A DNA stretch of 62,766 nucleotides, the filler included, from a bacterium (GTDB lineage: Bacteria; JAMORN01), in assembly GCA_027063545.1 (NCBI GenBank). It is 12 parts of 12 records of this genome, joined end to end, with 100 filler letters (N's around TTAATTAATTAA, not from the genome) between each part and the next. Parts side by side here need not be neighbours in the genome. Positions count along the whole stretch, not along the records: positions 1 to 5,449 come from JAMORN010000181.1; 11 more parts are not named here. One strand, written 5' to 3'. Made by a program: the position numbers and the translations under genes. Below the pieces are notes generated by a model. It was not told the DNA's origin and ran no database searches. It worked only from the letters and a program-made list of their open reading frames with translations. Of the stretch, positions 1 through 35,984 are shown piece after piece (within the stretch, counting starts at the first letter, position 1; the number at the start of each line of letters is the position of its first letter).

Positions 1-186
1 AAAACTACCTGCTGCTAAAGCTGATAAAGCAACTATATCAAACTTTTCGGAAAAACCTTGATGTGCAATAACATGTCCCCCTTTATCTATTAATAAGGTA
101 CATATAGCATCTGATTCTTCTCTTAACTCTCTTAGGATATTATTTATCTTTTTTAAATCTTGTTCTCTTATTATATCCAATGACAT
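1..186 (-). CDS. mglB: MglB-type Roadblock/LC7 GTPase-activating protein, 3' end outside the window
   Basis: Not in the ORF track. Hand translation MSLDIIREQDLKKINNILRELREESDAICTLLIDKGGHVIAHQGFSEKFDIVALSALAAGSF matches the MglB pattern (LxDKxG...D..aLaaLxAG). An AAGGGAG RBS lies upstream. Confidence 0.85.
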   Translation of the reverse strand, partial: MSLDIIREQDLKKINNILRELREESDAICTLLIDKGGHVIAHQGFSEKFDIVALSALAAGSF

Positions 187-227
187 TTAGAATCTCCCTT
201 TTTCTTTATTTTAATATATTAAAATAT

Positions 228-1544
228 TTACTTTCCAGATAAAAATCCAAATAATTTTGAAAAAAATCCTTTCTTTTTCTTCTTCTTAGTAATAACAATA
301 TTCCCAGAACTAGTTTTATATTTAGATTTTAATAGATCTTGCTGAGCTGATTGGGTTGATATATCATCTTTTTTCTTTTCTTGAGTAATTTGGGCTTCTT
401 CTTTTAAATTTTGTTTAATATTTGAAATATTATTTTGTAATATTTCTTTATTACTATTACTTAATTCATCTCTAATATCAGCAGAAATATTCTCCATAGA
501 ACTATCTAATTCTATATTATCTACTTTATCAAACACTTTAGTCTCAGATAAACTAACAGATTCTAACTCTAAATCATTCTCTGTTTCCAACGAAATCTCC
601 TCTAACGAATTATTAGATGTAGATAAAGATGTTGATTCAAGATCTAACCCTATTTCCTCTTCTTCACTACCCAATGAGAATTCATCTTGCTGGGTATTAT
701 AAGAATGGGTCTCAAGTTCTATATCCTCTGATGATGTAGAAATTCTCTCTGTTGAATCTGAAGTATTATCCAAATTTATAGTTTCAAGTTCTATAGATTC
801 ATCTATATAAATAGAATTATCTTCATTTTTTATACTAATTTCTTCCATAGAAGCTTCATCTTGAGTATTATTTTTAGAACCGTTTGCTATAGTTGTTTCT
901 TCTACTTTTTCTTCTTCTAACTTTGTATCCTTAGGCGGATTTATAACTTCAACCCCATATTTTTGATGAAGATATTCTATTGTTAATTTGGAAATAACTT
1001 TTAATGTTTTAAAAACACCTTCACCTTTAATAGCTATTGCTTCAAAATCAGGAACCCCCCATAAATTCAAATCCTTTCTCATTTCCTCCACACTCATAAC
1101 ATTTGGTAAATCTCTTTTATTGTATTGAATTACTAACGGAATATCTTTAACAACCTCTAACCCCATTTCTTTTAAATTATCCTGTAAATTCTGTAAACTC
1201 TCTATATTTTCATCCCTTTTGGCAGGATCTGAATCTGCAACAAAAACAACAGCATCAACCCCTTTTAATACTAACTTTCTAGTTGCATTATAATAAACCT
1301 GTCCAGGAACTGTATACAATTGAAACTTTGTTTTAAACCCCTTTATTTCTCCTAAATCTAAAGGTAAAAAATCAAAATATAAGGTTCTATCACCATCTGT
1401 AGATAAAGAAAGCATTTGACCTTTATTAGTGTCAGGTGTTTTATCAAAAATAACTTGAAGATTTGTTGTCTTCCCACTCATTCCAGGACCATAATATACA
1501 ATCTTACAATTAATTGTTTTAGAACCATAATTGATTTGAGCCAT
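228..1544 (-). CDS. mglA: MglA-family Ras-like small GTPase with a ~240-aa acidic C-terminal extension
   Basis: KIVYYGPGMSGKTTN (G1), DRTLYFD (intrinsic Arg finger), LYTVPGQ (G3), NKRD (G4), followed by a D/E/S-rich tail ending KKKKKKGFFSKLFGFLSGK. Confidence 0.92.
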   Translation of the reverse strand: MAQINYGSKTINCKIVYYGPGMSGKTTNLQVIFDKTPDTNKGQMLSLSTDGDRTLYFDFLPLDLGEIKGFKTKFQLYTVPGQVYYNATRKLVLKGVDAVVFVADSDPAKRDENIESLQNLQDNLKEMGLEVVKDIPLVIQYNKRDLPNVMSVEEMRKDLNLWGVPDFEAIAIKGEGVFKTLKVISKLTIEYLHQKYGVEVINPPKDTKLEEEKVEETTIANGSKNNTQDEASMEEISIKNEDNSIYIDESIELETINLDNTSDSTERISTSSEDIELETHSYNTQQDEFSLGSEEEEIGLDLESTSLSTSNNSLEEISLETENDLELESVSLSETKVFDKVDNIELDSSMENISADIRDELSNSNKEILQNNISNIKQNLKEEAQITQEKKKDDISTQSAQQDLLKSKYKTSSGNIVITKKKKKKGFFSKLFGFLSGK

Positions 1545-1558
1545 AGCTATTATCCCTT

Positions 1559-1897
1559 TTATACATTTTCTAATAATTTCATTGCTTTTTTAACCTCTAT
1601 TCTTACAAGCCCCAAATTAACATTTGTCCTTGTAATAACTACTAGAAATCCTACTTTCACTCTTGATATGATTAATAACTTTGTCTCGCCCTCTATAATC
1701 ATCATTTGGAATTTTTCATTTTGAATATCCTGAAATGCCTTGTCTGATATTTCAACAATAGATGCCGATAAAGCCCCTACAAAATCAGAATCAACCTCTG
1801 TAGAAACATCCGAAACAACAAGCATACCTTCTTTGGTTACAATTAAACTTCCTATGATCCCTTTAACCCTATTTAAATTCTGTAATATTTCTTTCAT
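1559..1897 (-). CDS. Roadblock/LC7 domain protein
   Basis: 112 aa with the KGIIGSLIVTKEGMLVVS...VGALSAS...NVNLGLVRIE Roadblock pattern; adjacent to mglA. Confidence 0.85.
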   Translation of the reverse strand: MKEILQNLNRVKGIIGSLIVTKEGMLVVSDVSTEVDSDFVGALSASIVEISDKAFQDIQNEKFQMMIIEGETKLLIISRVKVGFLVVITRTNVNLGLVRIEVKKAMKLLENV

Positions 1898-1909
1898 ATC
1901 ATAAACTCC

Positions 1910-2335
1910 CTATTTTATTATTATATTGACAGCATTATTGAAAGAATTAAATATATCTATATATTTATCCATAATATTTTTCAATCTTAATCTTACCAAC
2001 TCTTCTACATTAGGAGCTGTCTTCATGATAATGATAACATATCCAATTCTTAATATTATAATATCATTATCTTTGAATTTTAATACCATCTCCTGTATCT
2101 CACCTAAATCTAAAATTTCCCCTGATTTTAAATACTCTATACTATATGCTAATAGTTTTTCTTCCTGTTCATTATAACCACTACTTGATATAAATAATCC
2201 TTCATAGGTACCTAATATAACAGTTTTTATAGCATTATAACCCATTAAATTTTCTATTATCTCATCCCATTCGTCTTTCTCTATCTCTTGATTAGCCTTT
2301 TGTTTTCTATCTTCTCCTCCAAAAAAGAATCCCAT
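1910..2335 (-). CDS. Roadblock/LC7 domain protein with N-terminal MGFFFGG extension
   Basis: AIKTVILGTYEGLFISS...LDLGEIQEMVLKF...NVEELVRLRL Roadblock-like pattern; GGAG RBS upstream. Confidence 0.68.
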   Translation of the reverse strand: MGFFFGGEDRKQKANQEIEKDEWDEIIENLMGYNAIKTVILGTYEGLFISSSGYNEQEEKLLAYSIEYLKSGEILDLGEIQEMVLKFKDNDIIILRIGYVIIIMKTAPNVEELVRLRLKNIMDKYIDIFNSFNNAVNIIIK

Positions 2336-2345
2336 CTATAAACTC

Positions 2346-3023
2346 CTATATTTCATCTAAATTTAGTTTTAATTTTAGATAATTAAGATTTAAATGTTGG
2401 GTTCCTACATAATACATGTTTATATTTTTCACACTTCTCACATATAAAATTGTTGTATTTTCATATGTTATTAATAAACTATAAATTTTTCCAATTTTTT
2501 CAACAAGTTTGTTATTAACTGAAGCAAAAAATTTTTGATTAAAATTTTCTATATAATTTTTTAAATTTTCACTTACATTATAACAAGATATTATTCTATT
2601 GGTATCATTAAAAAATACCCATCCCTTTAATATATCTTCTCCATCTACTATTTCTAAGAGTAAATTTTCTATATAAAGCCCTGATAAAATAGCAGAAGAA
2701 TTATAAGTAAGATATTCCTGTTTTAACTTTTCAATCACATCTTTAACCTCATTTGTAAGCTCAACTCCTTCAAATTTTGCTAATACCTCTTTTACTTTTT
2801 CTTTATCTTTTTGTAGTATATAAATTATTAAAAGGGCAATATAAGATATTATAGGTAACATACCTGTTGACAAATTAAATTCTAATTGCTTTATTGCTCT
2901 ATCGTATTTTCCCCTTGCAATAAGATTTTTTGCTATAAATACATTAAAAGCTTCATTTTCTGAAGCATATTTTCTTATAAAGTCATCTGAAAACAATTTT
3001 AGTATTTTTTCTCTTTCTTCCAT
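2346..3023 (-). CDS. TPR-like N-terminus plus degenerate Roadblock-like C-terminal domain
   Basis: IAKNLIARGKYDRAIKQLE is TPR-like; the C-terminal ~110 aa show a helix-strand-helix pattern ending HLNLNYLKLKL, similar to neighbouring Roadblocks. Confidence 0.45.
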   Translation of the reverse strand: MEEREKILKLFSDDFIRKYASENEAFNVFIAKNLIARGKYDRAIKQLEFNLSTGMLPIISYIALLIIYILQKDKEKVKEVLAKFEGVELTNEVKDVIEKLKQEYLTYNSSAILSGLYIENLLLEIVDGEDILKGWVFFNDTNRIISCYNVSENLKNYIENFNQKFFASVNNKLVEKIGKIYSLLITYENTTILYVRSVKNINMYYVGTQHLNLNYLKLKLNLDEI

Positions 3024-4162
3024 ACTTTCTTCACTTTTAATTGTTTTTTATCTAATATGTTCTCTTTTTCTATATCAGAAAATTTTTTCGGATATTTTAA
3101 TTTTTTTATATAAAAAATTTTAAATGCATATTCAAATTGGTCCTCATAAAACTCTTTAACATTTTTATTTAACTGTTTAGCTAAAAAGAAGCTATTATAA
3201 TCCATATTGAATAAGGTAATCTTAATATCAAATAATCTTAAAAGAGTAAGTAAAGAAAATAATACTAAAAATACAGTTGTATAAAGTATAAATATTGTTC
3301 TTTCCTTTAAACTATATACGATTTCATCTTCTAAAGTTCTATCTTCGATATCTTTTTCACCAACAACATTTAAGTAATCTTCTTCTAACAATTCTCTGAG
3401 AATTTCAAGTACTCTATATTCGCTCCAACCAGAAAATTTTATTATTTCATCAACATTATTGAAACCATTTATTTGTAAAATAACATCTCTATAAATATTT
3501 ACACCATCTGTTTCAGCAATTATAGTATCTACGTCTATATTCTCATCTTTTTCTTTATCACTCTCAGAATCATCTGAAGATTTTTTTATCTTTTTTAATA
3601 TAACCTCTTCTCTATTTTTTAATTCAAATACAAGCTTTCTATTGCTAAACATAGTATTTAAAATCTTCTTTGTATCAGAACGTCGAGCTGCTTCCATTAA
3701 AATAAAATCTGTTGAAATCCTTATATGTTCAAATGATTTTATCTCTACTCCAATATCAAATCTATATGTCCCATAATTTCTCATTAAAATCTCACATAAT
3801 AAATCCTCATAAAATCTCCTTATAAGTATAATAACTTCGTCTCTTTCTAAATAATTCCCTGTAAATAAAATCTCCTCAAATGTTGAATCATAACTTTTTG
3901 AAAACTCTTCAATTTCTTCTATAACTCTTTTAGGGAACTTCTTTTTATATAAGAGATAATTCTTTATAAAATTTAAGTTTTCAAAATATTTTCCTTTATA
4001 TCTAACAAAAACTATATCACCATTCTTAAAATGAATCTCTACTTTTTCATCATCTGAATAATCTAAATATAGAATTCCTTCCTTTTTATCTTGAGAGATA
4101 GTTTGTAAAATATTTTCTATAGGAAAATTTTCTAAATTACCACTTATAATTGTCTTAGCCAT
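2999..4162 (-). CDS. DUF4388 (PATAN-like) domain membrane protein
   Basis: ISGNLENFPIENILQTISQDKKEGILYL...IHFKNGDIV...GTYRF...LMEAARRSD; a winged-helix-like segment; one TM helix near aa 290-310. Confidence 0.8.
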   Translation of the reverse strand: MAKTIISGNLENFPIENILQTISQDKKEGILYLDYSDDEKVEIHFKNGDIVFVRYKGKYFENLNFIKNYLLYKKKFPKRVIEEIEEFSKSYDSTFEEILFTGNYLERDEVIILIRRFYEDLLCEILMRNYGTYRFDIGVEIKSFEHIRISTDFILMEAARRSDTKKILNTMFSNRKLVFELKNREEVILKKIKKSSDDSESDKEKDENIDVDTIIAETDGVNIYRDVILQINGFNNVDEIIKFSGWSEYRVLEILRELLEEDYLNVVGEKDIEDRTLEDEIVYSLKERTIFILYTTVFLVLFSLLTLLRLFDIKITLFNMDYNSFFLAKQLNKNVKEFYEDQFEYAFKIFYIKKLKYPKKFSDIEKENILDKKQLKVKKVWKKEKKY

Positions 4163-4176
4163 CTTTTTATTCCTTT

Positions 4177-5449
4177 TTAAAAGCCTATTATTTTTATATA
4201 TTTACGTCTATTTCTTAAATAATTAACTATATACACAACAAGCAATAAAATAATCACAATAAACTTTAACCAAAATTTTAATTCATATATGGGAATATAT
4301 ACACCTGTATATTCAAATCTAAAAGAAAATAATGTCCACAAGAAAACCAAGCCTGCTATCTTTACAAACGTTGTCCATTCTATTATATTCTCCAATAAGT
4401 TATAACTACCTGGTATTAAATACACTATAATTCTTCTTAAAATATACTCTACCCTCTTACTATTTTCTTTTAATTCTAATTTAAGTTTATTTTTCATTAT
4501 ATGACTTTCAACCGCCTCTATTTTTGAACCACAAATAGGGCAAAAACCATCTTCAGTTTTACATTTATAACATACTTCCATACCACAAATTTTACATCTT
4601 GTGATATATTTTTTCTTTGCTGTAAAAATGTATACAATAAACCATATTACTATAATGAGTTTTATAATAGATATAATTTGATCAAACTTTGTTTTTTCTA
4701 AATATTTTTTAAAATCGCTATATATAAAATCTAATATAAGATTCTTTGGTAATGGAATATCAAGCATAGCTGTGGGTTTATCTACACCTAAAAATTTACT
4801 TGTCAAAAAAATATAATTCTTTACAAAACTCTCCATATTTTGAATCTTACTCCAATAAGATTCAAATCCCTCTATATCAATAGACTGAGGATTAAGTTTT
4901 AATTTAGCCATATTATAATATACTTCTGGTATGAATTTTCTATTTAAAGCTTGCTTATATAACTTTTCACTTATTGTATAATTATTCAAAAAGAAATAAT
5001 CATTTGCTTTATTGGCTTCTACTTCTGGTAGTTTTTCTTCTATTGCATTTTCAAATTGATCCCATAATTTTAAAGAAGCAATATAATCTCCTCTTTTTTT
5101 CTCCTGATAAGCTAAAGCAGCCAATAATAAAGGATGTTTACTCTCCTCTAGTTTTTCCTCTATTTTTGCATAAAGATCTTCATCAAATCCGTATTGATAA
5201 CTTCTATAATATAACTGATATACCGAATCTGTTTTTAAGGGTATATAATATATATAAAGAAATTGATATACTAAAATTGTTAATAGTATAAAAATACCTG
5301 TTAATCCTAAAATTATCTTTTCATGAAGAATTATTTTTCTTGCAATTAAAACTCCAAATAAAATTATAATCCCATATATACCTAATAAATAATACAATAT
5401 TCCTAATCCTAATATACTATATATCCTGTGATATCCAATAGAAGCATTT
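4177..5449 (-). CDS. Multi-TM TPR protein with Cys-rich Zn finger, 5' partial (continues from 53595..54402)
   Basis: Frame is open to the contig end (NASIGYHRIYSILGLGIL...). TM segments, TPR-like repeats and RCKICGMEVCYKCKTEDGFCPICG are present. Confidence 0.75.
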
Positions 5450-5549
5450 NNNNNNNNNNNNNNNNNNNNNNNNNNNNNNNNNNNNNNNNNNNNTTAATTA
5501 ATTAANNNNNNNNNNNNNNNNNNNNNNNNNNNNNNNNNNNNNNNNNNNN
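5450..5549. other. Artificial contig linker
   Basis: N44-TTAATTAATTAA-N44 (stops in all six frames). Confidence 0.99.
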
Positions 5550-5892
5550 TAATAAGGAATATATAGTAATTAAAATAATGTCCTGATATATATAGAGATC
5601 GTCTGGTATTTAAAATCTTGTCTATAAAATAAAATTTTCTTATAACCTTATTCTTATTTTTAGAAAATAAATATAAAAAAATAAAAACTATTTCACAGAA
5701 AGAGACTGTAATAACACTATACTTTATAGTTTTTGTATAGATTTCATGATTAAGATTTAATATATACATAAATATCAACCATTCGCTAAAAGTAATTAAT
5801 GTAGGAAATACCATGCCTATAAGAAAAGTTGAAGTAATAGTATCCAATTTAGAATTAATTTTTCTATATAAAGTATTAAATATTCTCTCCAT
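5550..5892 (-). CDS. Hypothetical membrane protein, 3' partial
   Basis: ATG at 5892; two hydrophobic segments; runs into the gap. Confidence 0.5.
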
Positions 5893-10990: not shown

Positions 10991-11090
10991 NNNNNNNNNN
11001 NNNNNNNNNNNNNNNNNNNNNNNNNNNNNNNNNNTTAATTAATTAANNNNNNNNNNNNNNNNNNNNNNNNNNNNNNNNNNNNNNNNNNNN
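10991..11090. other. Artificial contig linker
   Basis: N44-TTAATTAATTAA-N44. Confidence 0.99.
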
Positions 11091-16498: not shown

Positions 16499-16598
16499 NN
16501 NNNNNNNNNNNNNNNNNNNNNNNNNNNNNNNNNNNNNNNNNNTTAATTAATTAANNNNNNNNNNNNNNNNNNNNNNNNNNNNNNNNNNNNNNNNNNNN
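16499..16598. other. Artificial contig linker
   Basis: N44-TTAATTAATTAA-N44. Confidence 0.99.
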
Positions 16599-34218: not shown

Positions 34219-35984
34219 AAAGGAGAGGAAATATGAGAGAAAAATTTAAACAATTATTAATTATTATGGTCATATTATTATTAATTAATACTTATAGTTA
34301 TTCACAAACATCAAAGAATTTAACAAAAGAAGTATGTGGATATTTTGTATATTGGGGACCTGATAACAATTCATTTAAATCTCTTCAAGAAAATCAAGAT
34401 GTATTAACACAAATTTCAATAGGTATATATAGACTTATGCCTGATGGAGTAACATTAGGATATCAAGAATATATTTCTGATAGTGTTATAAATGAAGTAT
34501 TAAAAATGGCTAGAGAATATAATATTAAAACATTTGCTATGTTACAAAACTATAATCCAGATATTCAAAATTCAATAAATCCAGAAATTCAAGGTGATTT
34601 TGATAGTAAAGCTTTACAAACATTAGTAAGTAGTGCTCAAAATAGAACAGAACATATAAAACAAATAATGGCAGAAGTAAGAAAATGGGATTATGATGGC
34701 ATTGAAGTAGATTATGAACAGATGGCTTTGGATGTGAATACTGGAGAGCAGTATAAAGATGATTTTACAGCATTTGTTAGAGAACTTGCTGATTCTTTAC
34801 ATGCTATAGGAAAAGAAATAGCTATAGCAGTACATCCAAAATTTAAAGATGAGGCAACATGGGGAGGTCCAGCAGCACAGGATTATGCTGTTTTATATGA
34901 GATTGTTGATCATTTTAGAATAATGACATATGATTTTAGTTGGTCTATTTCAGCACCAGGAGCAATAGCTCCTTATAGATTTGTTAAAGATGTGTTAAGT
35001 TATACAGTATTAACAGGTACTTATCCAAATCATAGAGAGGAATTTAATATTACCCATGATGGACAAGAGTATTCATGTTTAGGATTAGGGGGAGATAAAG
35101 TATATATGGGAGTAGCTTTTTATGGTTATGATTGGTATAAGTGGGATCCTGGACTTTATGTTGGAGATCCTGATCATGACCCATGGTGGGGAGATGGTGT
35201 TTGTAAAGCTTATCCTTATGATGCTTCTAAAAATACAGGAAGGAGTGATGCTAGAACATGGGAGGAAATCCAAGAAATACTAAATACTTATAATATAACA
35301 CCTGTTTATGAACTTCCAGCTAGAGAACTTCATAAATACTATTGGGGAGATTATGGAAATATGTTAAATTCTGATCCAACTTATGGATATGCTGCTGGTG
35401 GTATTGATTATATAGGAAAAGTAGGGTATTTTGTGTATCCATGTGATACAGGAACGGTTCACTATGATTGGAAATCTTCCCAATATTATAATCCTAAATA
35501 TCCAGATCCTTTTGAAGAGTTTGCTAATCAAAAAGTAAGAAAGGTTTACTTTGAAGATCATATAACAATAGCTCAAAAATTAGCACTTGTAGATACATTT
35601 AATATAAGAGGTATTTCTATTTGGAGATTAGGAGGAGAAGATCCAGAAAATTGGAATACTATTTGGAATTATTTTGGTGTTGGTGAAAGACAACAACAAG
35701 TTAAAAATAATAAAATAGAAAAAAATATTTCCATAAATATATATCCAAATCCATTTAATCCAGTTTCTAATATAGATATAAAAGGTATAGATATAAATAA
35801 AAATTTAAAAGTCTCAGTTTATGATATAAACGGAAAGATGATTTCACAATTATATAATGGTATTATTAAAAGTAAAAATATTAGATTTTCATGGAATGGA
35901 GAGAAATTTTCATCAGGTGTCTATTTTGTAAAGGTAATAAATGGAAATAATATAATAACTAAGAAAATGATTTTAATGAAATAA
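33972..35984 (+). repeat. Two closely related T9SS CTD-coding cassettes (about 33972-34218 and 35737-35984)
   Basis: Shared ATATATCCAAATCCATTTAATCC and TGGAATGGAGA...TCAGG.GT.TATTTTGTAAA.GTA. Confidence 0.6.
34233..35984 (+). CDS. GH18 chitinase-like hydrolase with T9SS type A sorting domain
   Basis: Signal peptide, YDGIEVDYE, IMTYD, FYGYDW, VYFED, GISIWRLG; CTD YPNPFNP...KMILMK. Confidence 0.88.
   Translation: MREKFKQLLIIMVILLLINTYSYSQTSKNLTKEVCGYFVYWGPDNNSFKSLQENQDVLTQISIGIYRLMPDGVTLGYQEYISDSVINEVLKMAREYNIKTFAMLQNYNPDIQNSINPEIQGDFDSKALQTLVSSAQNRTEHIKQIMAEVRKWDYDGIEVDYEQMALDVNTGEQYKDDFTAFVRELADSLHAIGKEIAIAVHPKFKDEATWGGPAAQDYAVLYEIVDHFRIMTYDFSWSISAPGAIAPYRFVKDVLSYTVLTGTYPNHREEFNITHDGQEYSCLGLGGDKVYMGVAFYGYDWYKWDPGLYVGDPDHDPWWGDGVCKAYPYDASKNTGRSDARTWEEIQEILNTYNITPVYELPARELHKYYWGDYGNMLNSDPTYGYAAGGIDYIGKVGYFVYPCDTGTVHYDWKSSQYYNPKYPDPFEEFANQKVRKVYFEDHITIAQKLALVDTFNIRGISIWRLGGEDPENWNTIWNYFGVGERQQQVKNNKIEKNISINIYPNPFNPVSNIDIKGIDINKNLKVSVYDINGKMISQLYNGIIKSKNIRFSWNGEKFSSGVYFVKVINGNNIITKKMILMK

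Follow-up and report, generated by a model that had tools for sequence, protein, structure and literature searches.

A compact, Roadblock-rich MglA/MglB gene cluster with a predicted membrane tether on a single bacterial contig

How a Ras-like GTPase switch might be organised at a membrane outside the eukaryotes is the question raised by one contig (JAMORN010000181.1, positions 1 to 5449) of the draft assembly GCA_027063545.1, a bacterium of the GTDB lineage JAMORN01. The contig is the first part of a 62,766-nucleotide stretch of DNA, analysed at its full length and called the window here. MglA and MglB serve as the paradigm of Ras-like polarity control in bacteria; these reference proteins are soluble, with an MglA of ~195 amino acids, whereas the MglA encoded on this contig carries what is predicted to be its own membrane anchor. 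In Myxococcus, the module comprises MglA, MglB with MglC, RomR/RomX, RomY, and the effector SgmX. In the window, the switch is hard-wired in one operon to a membrane protein with a PATAN domain and to two to three extra Roadblock proteins. An earlier note on this DNA had interpreted the gene cluster as a Ragulator-like platform of several Roadblock domains on membrane scaffolds; its observation was confirmed, its interpretation is partly supported, and the predicted membrane tether of MglA itself had escaped it. We regard it as reasonably probable that the cluster is a compact, membrane-tethered MglA/MglB module with extra Roadblock proteins and a PATAN anchor, of which the output would most likely be the type IV pilus.

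The region 1-5449 is exactly one whole contig, with a G+C content of ~25%, and the window consists of contigs joined by N44-TTAATTAATTAA-N44 spacers; genes past position 5550 are therefore unlinked to the module, and its last gene is cut by the contig end. Seven open reading frames (ORFs), g1 to g7, are all encoded on the minus strand, to which all coordinates on this contig refer, with intergenic spacings from g1 to g7 of 14, -25 (an overlap of g3 and g2), 10, 12, 14, and 41 bp, which confirms the tightly packed and co-oriented run reported previously. Purine-rich stretches of the GGA/GGAG type, which are read as ribosome-binding sites, were found upstream of g2 and of g4 to g7. The parts list proposed in the earlier note (a TPR/zinc-finger membrane protein, a DUF4388 membrane protein, a TPR-Roadblock protein, two Roadblock proteins, MglA, and MglB) was right apart from the Roadblock half of g3, which found no sequence support; the TPR and zinc matches of g1 in Pfam were weak.

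The switch is encoded by g6 (228..1544, 438 amino acids), of which residues 1-191 match MglA of M. xanthus (6hjh_A) at E 3.5e-77, and which matches MglA of T. thermophilus (3t12_A) at E 3.1e-70. In the alignment with the M. xanthus protein, four stretches are identical or conservatively replaced (yygpgmsgktt, dgdrtlyfdflp, ytvpgq, and ynkrdl), and we take them to be the P-loop GxxxxGKT, the arginine of switch I, a TxxGQ of the MglA type in place of DxxGQ, and the NKxD motif. Thr78 is given in PMC3000849. By these similarities, g6 is a bona fide MglA small GTPase of the Group 1 type. It is not a single-domain MglA of ~195 amino acids: the GTPase domain (960..1544, residues 1-195) is followed by a tail of 243 residues (196-438) that is rich in Glu, Ser, Lys, Ile, Asn, and Leu and has a net charge of -29. 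The greater part of this tail is an acidic, Glu/Ser-rich, low-complexity linker (288..959), and five [IL][ED]L[ED][ST] motifs recur in the tail at ~25-residue distance (IELET 251, IELET 275, LDLES 300, LELES 325, and IELDS 344). The tail closes with a predicted membrane-binding, polybasic amphipathic end (231..287) that consists of KKKKKK followed by GFFSKLFGFLSGK; the protein terminates in KKKKKKGFFSKLFGFLSGK, with a hydrophobic moment of 0.46 over the last 13 residues.

Such tails are not peculiar to this contig. A homologue search with MglA that was limited to proteins of 240-767 amino acids and to E <= 1e-20 returned at least 8,000 matches, of which the best 120 were classed by their C-terminal end. 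Among these 120, the end is a transmembrane helix in 97 and a polybasic plus hydrophobic stretch in 10, while 7 have neither type and 6 are shorter than 260 amino acids and were left unclassed. The polybasic group includes the three proteins closest to g6 (P0007, P0008, and P0010, with 78%, 75%, and 72% identity) as well as a protein named as candidate division Zixibacteria. Most of these best long MglA homologues carry membrane-directed ends, and a long tail with such an end is therefore a family trait, within which g6 belongs, by the composition of its C-terminus, to the polybasic-amphipathic subtype. The TPR-Roadblock protein of one related locus (L130:7379-7430) starts with MSFFSKLFG, of which seven residues (FFSKLFG) recur at the C-terminal end of the window MglA; g4 starts with MGFFF (2294-2335) and its relative P0005 with MGMFF; and all 15 TPR-Roadblock proteins in an alignment of that family (A3) begin with a hydrophobic-then-basic amphipathic stretch (columns about 50-80). 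These stretches may represent a second membrane- or partner-binding motif.

The contig encodes three further proteins for which a Roadblock domain is firmly assigned, and a fourth for which it is a structural lead only, so that the earlier count of up to four Roadblock domains holds for g4, g5, and g7 and is left as a lead for g3. Downstream of g6, at a distance of 41 bp, the open-ended g7 (1..186) provides the first 62 residues of an MglB-type Roadblock protein truncated at the contig end. With our own Roadblock/MglB hidden Markov model (HMM) it reaches 51.5 bits; it also matches the 160-residue MglB of two metagenome loci (L040/L026) at E 5e-14 by phmmer, and has a weak match to the NCBIfam MglB model (E 0.006). 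Directly upstream of the long-tailed mglA, g5 (1559..1897, 112 amino acids) encodes a short Roadblock/LC7 protein that matches Robl_LC7 (PF03259) at E 8.4e-14 with 51.5 bits (cut-off 23); its best sequence matches in the PDB are short Asgard archaeal Roadblock proteins (E 1e-10), with MglB at E 0.014.

The neighbouring g4 (1910..2335, 141 amino acids) is more divergent, and its Pfam Roadblock match is below threshold (E 0.16). A profile made of g4, its relative P0005, and a partial ORF of locus L026 was aligned by hhalign to a 24-sequence Roadblock/MglB profile with 94.2% probability (E 1.1e-7, 112 columns). The AlphaFold (AF2) model of g4, with a predicted local distance difference test (pLDDT) score of 72.8, has the order a-b-b-a-b-b-b-a, and a Foldseek search with this model placed 7f8m_B on top (E 7e-5) among 25 matches at E <= 0.001; the PDB entries closest to it are chains of Roadblock proteins, of MglB, and of LAMTOR, including LAMTOR2/3. 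By profile and predicted fold, g4 is a Roadblock protein. An exhaustive search of 1.84 billion representatives yielded P0005, with 31% identity, as its sole real relative, and the g4 family reached only 7.6% probability against the TPR-Roadblock family in hhalign. A second match, a long protein aligned in 8 stretches to g4 residues 92-139, was set aside as probably low-complexity. For both P0005 and P0007, the closest relative of the window MglA, the record gives 48,513 bases as the length of the longest contig, which hints that the nearest relative keeps g4 beside mglA on one contig.

The earlier note had proposed that the Roadblock proteins form heterodimers, and complex prediction bears this out for g4 and g5. 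The pair was scored as a heterodimer alone, set against controls and not against homodimers, and reached an ipSAE of 0.76 versus 0.00 for the best control, which passes a mark that 58 of 80 solved complexes also attain, as do 2 of 110 mismatched pairs. At least 95% of contacts are common to the three runs, the partner pLDDT is at least 80, and the predicted interface is formed by helix 2 and strand 3 of both chains. A Roadblock heterodimer of g4 and g5 is therefore predicted, and the pass may reflect the likeness of the pair to solved Roadblock dimers.

The product of g3 (2346..3023, 225 amino acids), which overlaps g2 by 25 nucleotides, consists of a helical-repeat (TPR/PPR-like) N-terminal half and an alpha/beta C-terminal half that is possibly Roadblock-like. 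In its AF2 model, residues 1-110 are all helical with a pLDDT of ~90, and residues 108-225 have the order E-E-E-H-E-E-E-E with a pLDDT below 50; Foldseek returned weak PPR/TPR-like rows for this model and none at E <= 0.001. In the Atlas model of g3, residues 108-225 align at a template modelling (TM) score of 0.62-0.72 to small Roadblock/DUF6659 clusters, with feature scores of 0.83, which is the level of a lead. The C-terminal half may thus be Roadblock-like according to the models, and of the two proteins encoded at 1910..3023 to which the earlier note had ascribed a Roadblock fold, g4 has it by profile and fold, whereas for g3 the models alone point to it. The hhalign probability of g3 against the TPR-Roadblock family is 0.6%, matches to Roadblock were weak for g3, as they were when g3 and the protein of metagenome locus L032 were aligned as single sequences, and a word-index search with g3 found no relatives beyond the window's own protein. 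The gene sits where related loci (see below) have a TPR-Roadblock gene, and the agreement is one of position and predicted architecture only. A split of such a gene into g3 and g4 was considered, as 225 plus 141 amino acids come near the 362-425 amino acids of the related genes; g3 and g4 are in different frames, and a GGAG stretch precedes g4. A 16-residue run in g3 that is rich in Ile, Leu, and Tyr (Kyte-Doolittle 2.05; 2853-2924, residues 34-57, with the hydrophobic run at residues 49-72) might form either a repeat helix buried in the fold or a short segment within the membrane, and the model places it in the helical bundle.

Two membrane proteins complete the operon. The product of g2 (2999..4162, 387 amino acids) carries a PATAN domain (3668..4144, residues 7-165) that matches PF14332 (DUF4388) at E 1.8e-18 with 67.2 bits (cut-off 25) over profile positions 1-121 of 122; the domain contains an insertion, with 159 residues versus the 122 positions of the profile. 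One C-proximal transmembrane-like segment follows (3209..3304, residues 287-318), with a Kyte-Doolittle 19-mer maximum of 2.54. Residues 170-387 have no Pfam match, and a word-index search with g2 returned only the window's own protein. Proteins identical to g2, g3, and g6 are listed in the protein database as coming from a contig of 19,682 bases. The first gene, g1 (4177..5397, 406 amino acids), encodes a polytopic membrane protein that combines a region resembling TPR with a Cys-rich motif resembling a zinc ribbon. Its four or five hydrophobic segments lie in residues 1-54 (two), 236-265, and 366-397, and three CxxC pairs (CxxC-x4-CxxC-x6-CxxC; 4519..4614, about residues 262-293, read from the translation) follow a Lys-rich stretch. 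The Pfam matches of g1 are weak (Zn_ribbon_NOB1 E 0.009, TPR_1 E 0.14, and, on a part of the protein alone, a zinc ribbon at E 0.0018), and its Atlas feature score to TPR clusters is 0.95, with 224 of 256 features shared. The zinc ribbon would be cytoplasmic on account of the positive-inside rule. A zinc-ribbon domain of GltJ, a membrane protein of M. xanthus, is reported in PMC11135422 to recruit MglB, and binding of MglB by g1 is therefore a specific prediction.

Whether this arrangement is a local oddity or a recurrent module was addressed by comparison with other loci. Metagenomes scanned with the G domain yielded 80 loci of 57-67% identity, of which 64 have the ordinary layout, with a single MglB-type ORF directly upstream of an mglA of ~195 codons, and 11 have no detected Roadblock ORF, a number that may include loci at contig edges. 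The remaining five (L026, L032, L040, L041, and L049) show the core seen in the window, namely a short Roadblock gene, then an MglA of 326-372 amino acids, then MglB where the contig allows; the MglA of these loci ends in a transmembrane helix or in an amphipathic stretch rich in Arg, Phe, and Trp, and L032 has a TPR protein just upstream of the core. A scan of genome contigs with full-length g6 returned a single locus, L001, with a solitary MglA of 193 amino acids that has no Roadblock or PATAN neighbour. The genome of this locus (G001, 5.5 Mb) has 32 DUF4388/PATAN and 11 MglA-type matches, which is an unusually large set.

Because named relatives of the long MglA pointed to the Planctomycetota, as the phylum of G001 is recorded, the search was extended to 101 genomes sampled from that phylum, of which 67 match a 345-residue tail-anchored MglA at E <= 1e-30. 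The ~18 kb around 20 of the best matches (loci L120-L139) were annotated with our own HMMs. For PATAN, the HMM was built from 13 PATAN segments of G001, since phmmer with the PATAN domain of g2 had missed the PATAN proteins of that genome; as a positive control, it recovered g2 at E 3e-19. Five families of same-strand ORFs were found in these related loci: MglA in all 20, a PATAN protein of ~1,100 amino acids and a short Roadblock protein in 19 each, and a TPR-Roadblock protein of ~380 amino acids and MglB in 18 each, and no further same-strand family occurred in more than 6 of the 20. The order PATAN, TPR-Roadblock, Roadblock, long-tailed MglA, MglB is kept in 15 of the 20 loci; the PATAN gene stands after mglB in four (L131, L134, L136, and L138), and in L132 no PATAN gene lies within range. 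A conserved gene order in relatives, which the earlier note had named as a point on which its proposal could fail, is thus found in this phylum and, for the core, in 5 of the 80 metagenome loci.

The proteins of the related loci resemble those of the window to different degrees. The middle gene encodes TPR by Pfam, and its C-terminal domain aligns with Roadblock at 95.9% probability (E 6.3e-9, hhalign). MglA ends in a transmembrane-like segment in 18 of the 20 loci; L134 lacks it, and L135 is masked at that place. Four of the large PATAN proteins were scanned (L123, e.g., L123:3926-7060, L126, L128, and L134), and these combine PATAN with TPR repeats and a PQQ/BamB-like beta-propeller. A transmembrane-like segment is present in 11 of 15 upstream PATAN proteins, in 10 of them at about residue 455-553; the large PATAN proteins are probably membrane-spanning, and their layout suggests a cytoplasmic PATAN domain that is coupled to a periplasmic sensor. 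In gene order, g2-g3-g5-g6-g7 parallels the five-gene module gene for gene, with g3 dissimilar in sequence to the TPR-Roadblock family, g4 as an extra, g1 unmatched, and g2 reduced to PATAN plus a transmembrane helix. The core layout thus recurs in most sampled genomes of the phylum, next to thousands of long MglA homologues, and the copy in the window is the most compact and an AT-rich one, with small proteins that suit biochemistry. The comparison also bears on the suggestion that the mglB downstream of mglA begins a second mglBA pair beyond the contig, which is not borne out: an MglB directly past the long MglA is the conserved cognate position, the 20 related loci hold one MglA each within ~8 kb on either side, and in L040 mglB is followed by pilB.

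Parts of this neighbourhood have been described. PATAN genes beside mglB/mglA are known for Group 1 and Group 5 MglA, and two MglB per MglA have also been noted, as given in Wuichet and Sogaard-Andersen 2014 (PMC4316618, citing Makarova et al. 2006 for the former); the sections concerned do not mention a membrane-tethered MglA, a TPR-Roadblock fusion, or a fixed five-gene order. A partial literature search found no description of an MglA with a membrane-anchoring tail, of the fusion, or of that order, and supplementary table S2 of PMC4316618 may list such loci. The neighbourhood of PATAN with MglA/MglB is therefore already published, and the membrane-tethered multi-Roadblock form is conserved and unstudied. 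The window cluster shares with the Myxococcus and Thermus modules a similar G domain, an adjacent MglB-type Roadblock gene, and a TPR protein nearby, and its extra Roadblock proteins recall MglC. It differs from them in that mglB is downstream of mglA rather than upstream, as in the 64 ordinary metagenome loci, in the 243-residue tail with its predicted membrane-binding end, in the two or three extra Roadblock genes and the PATAN membrane protein of the same operon, and in that neither RomR nor RomX was seen on the contig. The actinobacterial conservon (CvnA-D) likewise combines in one operon a membrane sensor with a Roadblock protein and a GTPase of the MglA family (PMC4316618), but the window operon encodes neither a histidine kinase nor CvnC/DUF742, and its G domain is near Group 1 MglA and not the Group 2 of the conservon. 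The prokaryotic Rab-like proteins treated in an Asgard GTPase study are noted there to lack such C-terminal membrane extensions (PMC10933270).

In the mechanism that we propose, g6 MglA would be a GTP/GDP switch that is held at the inner membrane face by its own long, disordered tail with a polybasic amphipathic helix, and g7 MglB would, by homology, be the GTPase-activating protein (GAP) that switches it off, a relation described for Myxococcus and Thermus in PMC4316618. The g4 and g5 products, and probably the C-terminal half of g3 as well, would pair through the usual Roadblock dimer interface and serve as adaptors or co-regulators in the way of MglC and RomY of Myxococcus. The membrane protein g2, and perhaps g1, would hold the assembly at a site on the membrane and connect it with an output; the best candidate for this link is g2, a PATAN protein with a helix of its own as anchor. 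The type IV pilus extension motor is the most likely output. In L040, the only module copy among the loci examined here with a pilus gene beside it, a PilB-type ATPase with T2SSE (E 6.6e-95) and MshEN domains (L040:1991-3203) starts 98 bp past mglB. The cyanobacterial PatA-type regulators PixE, PixG, and LsiR share the PATAN domain and are membrane-localised; in Synechocystis, PATAN domains bind the N-terminal domain of PilB (PilB1) and PilC, and MglA/MglB genes often neighbour PATAN genes, according to 10.1101/2021.06.11.447907. In contrast to these regulators, g2 has no receiver domain, has its own transmembrane anchor, and is encoded with a GTPase switch.

Several observations weigh against this mechanism. 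The membrane binding of g6 by its 13-residue amphipathic end is predicted from sequence, and the tail is acidic (net -29), as opposed to the basic, Ala/Pro-rich tails (+9 to +21) of five compared relatives. With 387 amino acids, g2 is far shorter than the related PATAN proteins of ~1,100 amino acids and has neither their TPR nor their propeller domains, none of the 20 related loci has a counterpart of g1, and g3 has no sequence or profile match to Roadblock or to the TPR-Roadblock family in Pfam and hhalign. The 62 residues of g7 stop short of its C-terminal helix, which would lie beyond the contig end, and the comparison of the g4-g5 pair with controls instead of homodimers applies here as well. 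For the pilus, no such gene was found on the contig or elsewhere in the window, and no T2SSE ORF is present in any of the 20 related loci within about 8 kb; the proposed pilus output therefore depends on one metagenome contig (L040) and on the literature.

The same module might serve another output, such as the machinery of gliding or type IX secretion, division or budding of the cell, or growth of the envelope, with the periplasmic PATAN/TPR parts as sensors. The lack of T2SSE in the related loci fits such an output, as do the four scanned PATAN proteins, of which the PQQ-like propeller at the end is probably periplasmic where a transmembrane-like segment precedes it and suggests envelope sensing; the assembly also encodes, elsewhere, a type IX secretion cargo (Por_Secre_tail, E 2.3e-11), and in M. 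xanthus MglA also controls gliding. As pilB follows the module in L040 and PATAN binding to PilB and PilC has been shown in a cyanobacterium, we consider a non-pilus output to be a minority possibility. That the extra Roadblock genes are decaying or redundant mglB paralogues without a distinct role, and the cluster an mglA-mglB pair with passengers, is highly improbable. The great divergence of g3 and g4, which were both missed by Pfam, the absence of g3 relatives in the word search, and the single real relative of g4 would agree with decay; nevertheless, the short Roadblock and the TPR-Roadblock positions are kept in 19 and 18 of the 20 related loci, all ORFs are intact and the purine-rich stretches precede g2 and g4 to g7, the g4 model is confidently Roadblock, and the contig records of P0005 and P0007 hint at a shared contig.

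The Ragulator-like reading, which comes closest to the earlier interpretation, would have four Roadblock domains form two dimers on g1/g2 scaffolds that hold MglA at the membrane and activate it by an action resembling that of guanine nucleotide exchange factors (GEFs), instead of serving as GAP accessories. The analogy is plausible: like Ragulator-Rag (LAMTOR1-5 with RagA/C), the cluster may place several Roadblock-fold dimers at a membrane to bind a small GTPase, it has three firm Roadblock domains and one possible (g3), the g4 model matches LAMTOR2/3 chains as well as MglB, the g4-g5 heterodimer passes its test, and the operon encodes two membrane proteins. As a mechanism it appears unlikely. 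Rag GTPases dock on Ragulator through a Roadblock C-terminal domain, and the MglA of the window lacks a domain of that kind and has its own predicted tether, so that it would need no anchor. No LAMTOR1-like lipidated wrapping protein was identified, the MglB partner is a GAP by homology, and the core of the related loci holds only two non-MglB Roadblock domains. The hallmarks of Ragulator, a lipid-anchored wrapper, two Roadblock heterodimers, and Rag-type Roadblock docking, are thus not present as a set, with the g4-g5 dimer alone being predicted.

The MglA/MglB module with its predicted tether allows a broader proposal, which we put forward as a speculation with modest odds. Bacteria may have evolved independently a membrane-living small GTPase, with a hypervariable linker and a polybasic-amphipathic or transmembrane anchor, that is serviced by a paired Roadblock platform on membrane-spanning PATAN/TPR scaffolds. 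Such an assembly would be an analogue of the Ras/Rho tails combined with a Ragulator-type platform, widespread in the phylum of G001 and with tail variants in a Zixibacteria metagenome-assembled genome and in the AT-rich lineage studied here. If the tail binds the membrane, the system would offer a direct test of tethering and of Roadblock platforms in small-GTPase signalling outside eukaryotes.

Scans for signals and neighbouring features added little to the operon. Rfam and tRNA scans found no features, and promoter-like sites were no commoner than in shuffles (40 versus 39.8). A hairpin with a 6-bp stem and a T-rich tail (2950-2966) is found downstream of the g2 stop, just within the 5' part of g3; it accounts for both terminator-like rows, one per strand, versus 0.8 expected by chance, and is probably not meaningful. 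The promoter and terminator scan therefore does not delimit the operon. The window contains no PilB, second MglA, or further Roadblock or PATAN ORF elsewhere. The type IX secretion cargo mentioned above is a glycosyl hydrolase family 18 protein with a Por_Secre_tail domain (34233-35984, plus strand) on an unlinked contig, and this domain, together with the same kind of MglA tail in Zixibacteria, makes a bacterium of the Fibrobacteres-Chlorobi-Bacteroidetes (FCB) group plausible as the source. The pieces of the window come in falling order of length (5449, 5441, 5408, 5404, 5386, 5378, 5289, 5259, 5248, 5240, and 5237 bases, then a cut last piece), and the spacers between them, at 5450-5549, 10991-11090, 16499-16598, and so on roughly each ~5.4 kb, carry stop codons in all six frames.

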